From the sequence record EF517110.1: 555 nt of DNA; one strand, given 5' to 3'. Source of the stretch: a phage. Positions 1-555 of the stretch are shown here, piece after piece. Position 1 is the stretch's first letter. Each line of letters begins with the position of its first letter. The notes under the pieces are model-generated. The model saw only the letters and a program-made list of their open reading frames with translations, had not been told where the DNA came from and did no database searches. The translations under genes were made by a program, and so were the position numbers.

Positions 1-100
1 TAGAGTACATAAAGTATGCATAATGGTGTACCTAGAGTGACCTCTAAGAATGGTGATTATATTGTATTAGTATCACCTTAACTTAAGGACCAACATAAAG

Positions 101-111: not shown

Positions 112-261
112 ATGTTCCGCTTATTGTTGAACCTACTGCGGCATAGAGTCACCTACCGATTTCTTGTGGTACTTTGTGCTGCCCTTGGGTACGCATCTCT
201 TACTGGAGACCTCAGTTCACTGGAGTTTGTCGTTTGCTCTATACTCACTTGTAGCGATTAG
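112..261 (+). CDS. 19.5: Small hydrophobic protein, 49 aa (MFRLLLNLLRHRVTYRFLVVLCAALGYASLTGDLSSLEFVVCSILTCSD), T7 gp19.5-like, function unknown
   Basis: Seen in sequence: ATG at 112-114, open frame of 49 codons, TAG stop at 259-261, with GGAGGAG four bases upstream. It is the only ORF in the window with a ribosome-binding site. From memory the position (last gene before the right terminal repeat) and the N-terminal sequence match T7 gene 19.5; not verified by search. Confidence 0.8.
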   Translation: MFRLLLNLLRHRVTYRFLVVLCAALGYASLTGDLSSLEFVVCSILTCSD

Positions 262-371
262 GGTCTTCCTGACCGACTGATGGCTCACCGAGGGATTCAG
301 CGGTATGATTGCATCACACCACTTCATCCCTATAGAGTCAAGTCTTAAGGTATACCCATAAAGAGCCTCTA

Positions 372-409
372 ATGGTCTATCCTAAGGTCTATACCTAAAG
401 ATAGGCCAT
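372..409. other. Imperfect inverted repeat (10-bp arms, one mismatch) bracketing two heptamers
   Basis: Seen in sequence: ATGGTCTATC (372-381) against GATAGGCCAT (400-409), complementary at 9 of 10 positions (T376/G405 is the mismatch). The 18-nt spacer holds CCTAAGG and the start of CCTAAAG. Confidence 0.3.
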
Positions 410-500
410 TCTATCAGTGTCACCTAAAGAGGGTCTTAGAGAGGGCCTATGGAGTTCCTATAGGGTCCTTTAAAATATACCATAAAAATCTGAGTGACTA

Positions 501-555
501 TCTCACAGTGTACGGACCTAAAATTTCCCCATAGGGGGTACCTAAAGCCCAGCCA
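501..555. repeat. Start of the direct terminal repeat of a T7-like genome (partial; continues beyond the window)
   Basis: From 501 the sequence reads TCTCACAGTGTACGGACCTAAA..CCCCATAGGGGGTACCTAAAGCCCAGCCA, which matches the first bases of the T7 genome and terminal repeat as I recall them, apart from two apparent substitutions. The distance from the gene 19.5 start to this boundary (389 bp) also fits the T7 layout as I remember it. Not verified by alignment. Confidence 0.7.
527..538. other. Short GC hairpin inside the terminal repeat (C4-ATA-G5)
   Basis: Seen in sequence: CCCC (527-530), ATA (531-533), GGGGG (534-538). This can form a 4-bp G:C stem with a 3-nt loop. Confidence 0.4.

Follow-up and report, generated by a model that had tools for sequence, protein, structure and literature searches.

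The right end of phage T7

The window, by which we mean the whole stretch of 555 nucleotides analysed, corresponded to nt 39278-39832 of phage T7 with 98.9% identity (megablast of all 555 bases), and the end of a T7-like genome, from which an earlier note made from the letters alone had derived it, proved to be that of T7 itself. Gene 19.5 occupies window positions 112-261, with its own stop codon at 259-261, and the phiOR promoter, which transcribes the array region, is found immediately upstream of the window in the T7 record. The right copy of the 160-bp terminal repeat (TR), a feature annotated in DQ100054.1, 13a and Yanou, begins at window position 501 (T7 nt 39778), and positions 501-555 are those of T7 nt 1-55 except at 523 and 526. 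The interval 357-547, in which the earlier note had described an array of heptamers, consequently comprises non-coding DNA that separates gene 19.5 from the TR, followed by the first 47 bp of the TR itself, which bears out both its location outside coding sequence (gene 19.5 ends at 261) and its extension across the boundary between unique and repeated DNA. This interval almost certainly represents the short-repeat array at the right end of T7 and, in addition, the copies within the terminal repeat (Table 1).

The window differs from T7 at six positions (7, 227, 345, 410, 523 and 526), all of them G:C to A:T transitions in the pairwise alignment, a pattern that marks a T7 line mutagenised by chemicals or by a deaminase. 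The change at 227 leads to S39F in gp19.5, and two of the transitions destroy heptamer units, at 345 (344-350, CCTAAGG to CTTAAGG) and at 523 (517-523, CCTAAAG to CCTAAAA). No sequence identical to the window was detected in the phage collection, in plasmids or in IMG/VR.

Table 1 Features of the right-hand array and adjoining sequence, in window coordinates.
Feature	Position	Strand	Basis and remarks
Degenerate unit CTTAAGG, first of the right-hand array	344..350	+	T7 alignment; C345T; just outside interval 357-547
Heptamer unit CATAAAG	357..363	+	Strict pattern match
Heptamer unit CCTAAGG	381..387	+	Strict match; absent, with unit 394, from laboratory-evolved T7 clones
Heptamer unit CCTAAAG	394..400	+	Strict match; 13 nt after unit 381
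Heptamer unit CCTAAAG	423..429	+	Strict match; opens the 12-bp tandem pair
12-bp tandem pair TAAAGAGGGTCT / TAGAGAGGGCCT	425-436 / 437-448		Carries AGAGGG
Degenerate unit CTTAGAG	435..441	+	In second copy of the 12-bp tandem pair
Degenerate unit CCTATGG	446..452	+	CCTAAGG there in 13a and Yanou; start 55 nt before TR
Degenerate unit CCTATAG, nearest the TR	457..463	+	CCTAAGG in IME15 and CCTAAAG in T3 there
Conserved box CCTTTAAAATATACCATAAAAATCTGAGTGACTA	467..500	+	Abuts TR start; TR-anchored comparison
First 55 bp of the 160-bp right TR	501..555	+	Match to T7 nt 1-55
TR-internal unit CCTAAAA	517..523	+	CCTAAAG in reference T7; G523A
TR-internal unit CCTAAAG	541..547	+	Strict pattern match

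Heptamer enrichment and orientation

The strict pattern C[AC]TAA[AG]G, which stands for the three variants named in the earlier note, occurs seven times in the window, at 8, 94, 357, 381, 394, 423 and 541 and always on the + strand, with about 0.46 copies expected and none of 200 shuffles reaching seven. Interval 357-547 contains five of these copies (357, 381, 394, 423 and 541), and seven if up to one mismatch is accepted, with CCTATAG at 457 and CCTAAAA at 517 as the additional ones. The earlier count of at least seven copies in this interval is thus correct if point variants are included, as they were in that count, but strictly there are only five. Heptamer frequency was not matched by the shuffled-sequence control proposed with that count, since none of 5000 dinucleotide shuffles of the interval reached either five strict copies (mean 0.27) or seven relaxed ones (mean 1.02). 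The array is real and highly non-random. Degenerate units recognised through comparison with relatives (CTTAGAG at 435, CCTATGG at 446 and CCTATAG at 457) bring it to about ten units, at 344, 357, 381, 394, 423, 435, 446, 457, 517 and 541. The AGAGGG motif is present at 428-433 and 440-445, exactly where it had been described, and lies within the 12-bp tandem pair 425-436 / 437-448.

CATAAAG is also found at window 8-14 and 94-100, between phiOR and gene 19.5, the second copy running into the ribosome-binding site of gene 19.5. The corresponding place in IME15 (L008 67-97) has CATAAAG, CATAAAG and CCTAAAG, and the heptamers between phiOR and gene 19.5 form a small third cluster, apart from the classical arrays.

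Across the whole T7 genome CCTAAAG is present 22 times on the + strand and three times on the - strand, and 16 of the 22 + copies are located in nt 1-420 or 39200-39937. In the concatemer junction, reconstructed as right unique sequence, one TR and left unique sequence (639 nt), CCTAAAG is the commonest 7-mer, with 13 copies on the + strand versus none on the - strand, and the remainder of the 39.9-kb genome holds six and three, respectively. The information content of the aligned T7 copies is limited to 7 nt, with flanks at about 0 bits. Units are found from 44 to 172 nt before the TR start, within the TR and from 14 nt past the TR end in T7, with a comparable arrangement in T3, K11 and K1F, and the spacers between the 7-nt units vary from 4 to 22 nt. 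Tandem-repeat and CRISPR-like readings were rejected on the basis of such short units, such variable spacers and the lack of long repeats.

The names SRL and SRR for the two arrays reportedly originate from Dunn and Studier in 1983. The left array (T7 nt 175-355, outside the window) comprises 11 strict units, and the 13-mer ACCAGACCTAAAG occurs in it three times. This left-end array is annotated as a repeat_region named 'SRL', nt 175-338, in GenBank DQ100054.1 (the T7.1 record of the Endy group), so the element was already known.

Arrays in related phages

Heptamer-type arrays flank the TR on both sides in T7, T3, K11 and K1F, in line with the earlier statement that such arrays sit just inside both terminal repeats of T7-like phages. 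When junction 7-mers were ranked without any preset pattern, the top ones were CCTAAAG in T7 (13 copies) and in T3 (nine copies, plus four of CCTGTAG), (A)CCTGAG(G) in K11 (five to seven copies) and CCTACAG in K1F (six copies), with nearly all copies of the dominant 7-mer on a single strand and on both TR sides. T3 carries CCTAAAG and CTTAAAG on each side of its 231-bp TR and inside it, and CCTAAGG is the preferred unit in IME15 and Ebrios. The units are (A)CCTGAGG in K11, (A)CCTACAG and CCATAAG in K1F, and CATTAGG and CCTTAAG in Pectobacterium-phage-like contigs.

Anchoring the comparison on the TR revealed that one unit starts 44-46 nt before it in T7, T3, K11 and K1F and a second at 55-62 nt, and that the first unit after the TR lies 12-14 nt downstream in T7 and T3 and 26 nt downstream in K11 and K1F. 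The two TR-proximal units carry the same lineage-specific variant in different flanks, which indicates concerted change and not recent duplication. Units are most often spaced 11-13 bp apart (T7, 15 of 25 intervals; T3, 9 of 18). The comparison across T7-like genomes, advised in the earlier note as a check, showed unit placement near the TR to be conserved, the motif to be lineage-specific and the copy number to be variable.

Concerted, lineage-specific change would be expected if the units co-evolved with a trans-acting reader and, because T7 and K1F both infect E. coli but differ in their units, such a reader would be phage-encoded rather than a host factor. Of the two roles considered plausible at the outset, that of a site for a sequence-specific DNA-binding factor fits the comparative data, in which lineage motifs changed in concert and units are positioned, while a structural one fits less well. 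According to the latter, which was suggested in the earlier note, bending or flexibility of the arrays would aid the portal or core in handling the right end, which is packaged first, and the left end, which is packaged last, or would aid ejection. The presence of units at both genome ends with a quasi-regular spacing of 11-13 bp agrees with such a role, as do the short A runs of the T7 and T3 units, but the units of K11 (CCTGAGG) and K1F (CCTACAG) have no A-tract, and units 11-13 bp apart do not keep phase with the helical repeat of 10.5 bp. In addition, a bend needs no strict single-strand orientation (13 versus 0 in T7), and concerted lineage-specific sequence change would be left unexplained. 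We consider a structural role improbable.

Since the region is transcribed from phiOR, the units might also act in the transcript, as a barrier to ribosomes or RNA polymerase made of stop codons in all three frames. CCTAAAG and CCTAAGG contain TAA, CCTGAGG of K11 contains TGA and CCTGTAG of T3 contains TAG, and since the spacing of 13 nt is not divisible by three, the frame shifts from one unit to the next. The dominant K1F unit CCTACAG has no stop codon, however, no long ORF enters the region (gene 19.5 stops at 259-261), and ATCTGTT, at which the polymerase is known to pause, is distinct from the units. No terminator-like site was found in the window and the Rfam search of the region returned only a sub-threshold chance match; the absence of both a terminator-like site and a credible RNA family match also speaks against a barrier of this kind, which is very improbable indeed.

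A single sigma-70-like match at 216-245, inside gene 19.5, was no better than those in shuffled sequences. Structured RNA was rejected even though the array transcript folds somewhat better than shuffles (z=-2.4), because its stems are T7-specific imperfect palindromes that are not kept in 13a and YpsP-G. A T7 promoter-like reading of CCTATAGGG (457-465) was rejected as well, given that relatives have CCTAGAGGG at this place and that the units of K11 and T3 do not track promoters.

Sequence elements adjoining the array

The box at 467-500 lies at the same distance from the TR in T7, T3, K11 and Pectobacterium-phage-like contigs, despite their differing heptamers, and a search with the box pattern retrieved T3-like and Pectobacterium-phage-like contigs. 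The cut that produces the left end of the genome probably depends on this box as its essential cis signal. Within the box is ATCTGA, similar to the pause motif ATCTGTT that comes after the other TR boundary. Three laboratory-evolved T7 clones (L016, L017 and L018) have a CC insertion in the box at the equivalent of window 480/481 (TATACC to TATACCCC), and one of them also has T to C at the equivalent of window 470, so the box tolerates some change in the laboratory. At the other boundary, the laboratory-evolved clones L031 and L032 (MZ375286 and MZ375269) carry T to C at T7 nt 162, turning the pause motif ATCTGTT into ACCTGTT. Both have an 18-bp deletion within the TR, accompanied in one of them by an 11-bp deletion.

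Upstream of the array, the inverted repeat AGGGATTC...TCATCCCT (window 291-331) is conserved in T7, IME15/Ebrios, T3 and K11, with compensatory changes in four pairs and a DNA fold of z=-2.8. It may correspond to 'm', the element that forms a hairpin in the processing of T7 concatemers. The laboratory-evolved clones lack the repeat altogether, and it is hence dispensable in them.

Constraint and turnover of units

Evidence for constraint on the heptamers is mixed. Among eight natural T3-like junctions, three of 91 heptamer columns were variable compared with 58 of 472 other non-coding columns (Fisher p=0.009), and substituted cells amounted to 1.1% in heptamers and 4.9% in other non-coding sequence; two of the three variable heptamer columns correspond to the degenerate second motif position. 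In T7 and four close relatives, no heptamer constraint was detected (10 of 62 versus 52 of 336 variable columns, p=0.85), and the copies inside the TR were the most variable.

Differences in copy number involve entire units, as in a T3-like contig with an additional CCTAAAGTTGTTT ahead of the box and in two with two additional 13-bp units in the left array. Units have also been lost from laboratory-evolved T7 clones deposited as complete genomes (MZ375268, MZ375269, MZ375270, MZ375272 and MZ375286). In these clones T7 nt 39420-39608 is deleted, which removes most of gene 19.5 and the conserved hairpin, and deletions of 9-23 bp remove the unit pair 381/394, so that three of the five strict right-hand units remain. 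Two of the evolved clones were checked at the left end, where none of the 11 CCTAAAG copies in the TR and array is missing. The loss of units from the evolved clones and from the window itself indicates that individual units are dispensable.

An imperfect inverted repeat, AATGGTCTATC / GATAGGCCATT (window 371-410), encloses units 381 and 394. The window transition C410T raises its pairing from 9/11 to 10/11, and the 9-23 bp deletions of the evolved clones fall exactly within it.

Turnover of this kind could mean that the arrays are functionless, being made and turned over by replication slippage and unequal exchange at a concatemer junction prone to recombination. Gains and losses of units come in blocks of 12-13 bp, as the 12-bp pair at 425-448 illustrates, and the threefold ACCAGACCTAAAG of the T7 left array and the extra 13- and 26-bp units of T3-like contigs are of the same nature. 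The lack of excess heptamer conservation in close T7 relatives and the loss of units from evolved clones also agree with slippage. Drift after duplication should nevertheless erode heptamer and spacer alike, whereas in T7 information is found only in the 7 nt and in T3-like phages the heptamers have four-fold fewer substitutions. Slippage would also not account for the persistence of arrays at the same positions on both TR sides in four genera while the motif differs, nor for two proximal units with a common variant but unlike flanks. We therefore regard arrays produced by slippage alone as unlikely.

Primase sites in the spacers

The spacers, rather than the heptamers, may be what matters if the arrays are end-replication zones that offer T7 primase sites on the lagging-strand template near the termini, the heptamers being secondary. 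Strong sites (GGGTC, TGGTC and GTGTC) number four on the + strand and none on the - strand in the right array, and none and five, respectively, in the left array, with a genome mean of about one strong site per 240 nt per strand. With dinucleotide shuffles of the respective array region as control, P was about 0.002 for the right and about 0.001 for the left array. The sites span the spacers at window 373-467 and T7 nt 249-333, and the biased strand is in each case the lagging-strand template for an approaching fork. T3, K11 and K1F have a bias in the same direction, although in none of them is it individually significant, and the left-array sites at 290, 303 and 329 lie within the repeated ACCAGACCTAAAG 13-mer and so are not independent of one another. 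Since this explanation also leaves the retention of the heptamer itself unaccounted for, we deem it decidedly improbable.

A candidate reader of the heptamers

The single orientation of the units, the confinement of information to 7 nt, fixed placement, concerted change, spacing of about one helical turn and redundancy together point to reiterated sites for a co-evolving phage protein. From this combination we infer that the units are read by a protein, which protein this may be and what the resulting complex may do. The heptamers would be individually weak, redundant sites in the same orientation for a phage DNA maturation or packaging protein, with the small terminase subunit gp18, acting as an oligomer, as the leading candidate reader. 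In replicating concatemers, where units lie on both flanks of a single TR, several subunits could be loaded at intervals of 11-13 bp to form a nucleoprotein complex adjoining the conserved box, on the left side of the TR, and the motif at which RNA polymerase pauses, at the right TR boundary. Such a complex might aid precise cutting by gp19 and duplication of the TR. With many redundant sites, single units could be lost or gained, and the motif could drift with its reader in each lineage. Our best reading, tentative and possible rather than probable, is that the heptamers redundantly serve as recognition sites for a maturation or packaging factor encoded by the phage, most plausibly gp18; gp18 as the actual reader of the heptamers would claim perhaps half of that likelihood and is thus doubtful.

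T7 and T3, with their common heptamer, have gp18 proteins that are 92% identical, and residues R21, A24 and D45 are common to the CCTAAAG phages (T7, T3 and contig L025) and differ in K11, K1F and L024/L026, a co-variation that is anecdotal given the small alignment. The gp18 of L025 is 73% identical to that of T7, about as distant as that of K11 (71%), and yet L025 uses CCTAAAG, which counts against gp18 as the reader. The lack of heptamer constraint among close T7 relatives would likewise count against the units being protein sites in general, as would the dispensability of individual units. T3 and T7 are reported to differ in packaging specificity (Yamagishi 1985); as they do so despite their common CCTAAAG, the heptamer cannot be what sets that specificity. 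A domain and structure search with gp18 returned Pfam PF11123 only, with no recognised DNA-binding domain and no solved relative. According to a paper from 2022, PacB in the concatemer is recognised by gp18 and PacC is cut by gp19.

A more specific reading takes the heptamers as a lineage-specific code that would co-evolve with the N-terminal helices of gp18 (R21, A24 and D45 being the candidate residues), with the arrays, and not only the box and pause site, selecting the junctions to be processed and the spacers adding fork-oriented primase sites. We consider this reading quite unlikely.

Relation to known systems

The array is a known feature that was correctly recognised in the earlier note, a textbook element of the best-studied podovirus and not a discovery. 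It is the same element as the SRL and SRR arrays of T7, agreeing with it in heptamer, in strand and in lying between gene 19.5 and the right TR, and the window departs from reference T7 by only six point transitions, two of which inactivate units (345 and 523). The view that these repeats have no settled function is supported by the literature searched in full text, which did not include the key mapping papers of 1983-1996 and in which no discussion of the heptamers was found; the deletion-mapping work of 1990-1996 may show the arrays to be dispensable. Packaging of the T3/T7 type is still called poorly understood in reviews. Our additions are descriptive, namely a lineage-specific motif, conserved unit placement, a box by the TR, natural unit turnover, the loss of two units in evolved clones and mixed constraint. 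The heptamer repeats are the most conspicuous unexplained cis feature of the T7 concatemer junction and, with T7 packaging signals now used in phagemids, transducing particles and continuous-evolution systems, it would be of practical value to learn whether packaging becomes more efficient through the arrays or owes its lineage specificity to them.

Direct repeats in one orientation with a spacing of about one helical turn recall replication iterons, although these are usually 17-22 bp long and the T7 unit is 7 bp. To our knowledge T7 has no Rep-type initiator, and its origins fire via transcription by T7 RNA polymerase. The T7 arrays do lie near secondary origins at phiOL and phiOR (phiOL is annotated as a replication promoter/origin in DQ100054.1) but, unlike iterons, they flank the TR and not an AT-rich unwinding element. 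Membership of the iteron family was rejected, since the T7 gene table lists no Rep-type initiator and the unit has only 7 nt.

Arrays of sites for terminase small subunits are known from the R-sites of lambda cosB, bound by gpNu1, from the hexamer repeats on both sides of the cut in P1 pac and from the pacL and pacR boxes of SPP1. T7 differs from these systems in making direct terminal repeats instead of cohesive ends or headful cuts, in that initiation of its packaging is reported to depend on a paused RNA polymerase, and in losing units without loss of viability. What the T7 arrays have in common with cosB and pac is that short, oriented and redundant repeats are placed beside terminase cut sites, on both sides, and a 2026 review gives it as the general rule that the small subunit recognises cos or pac sites.
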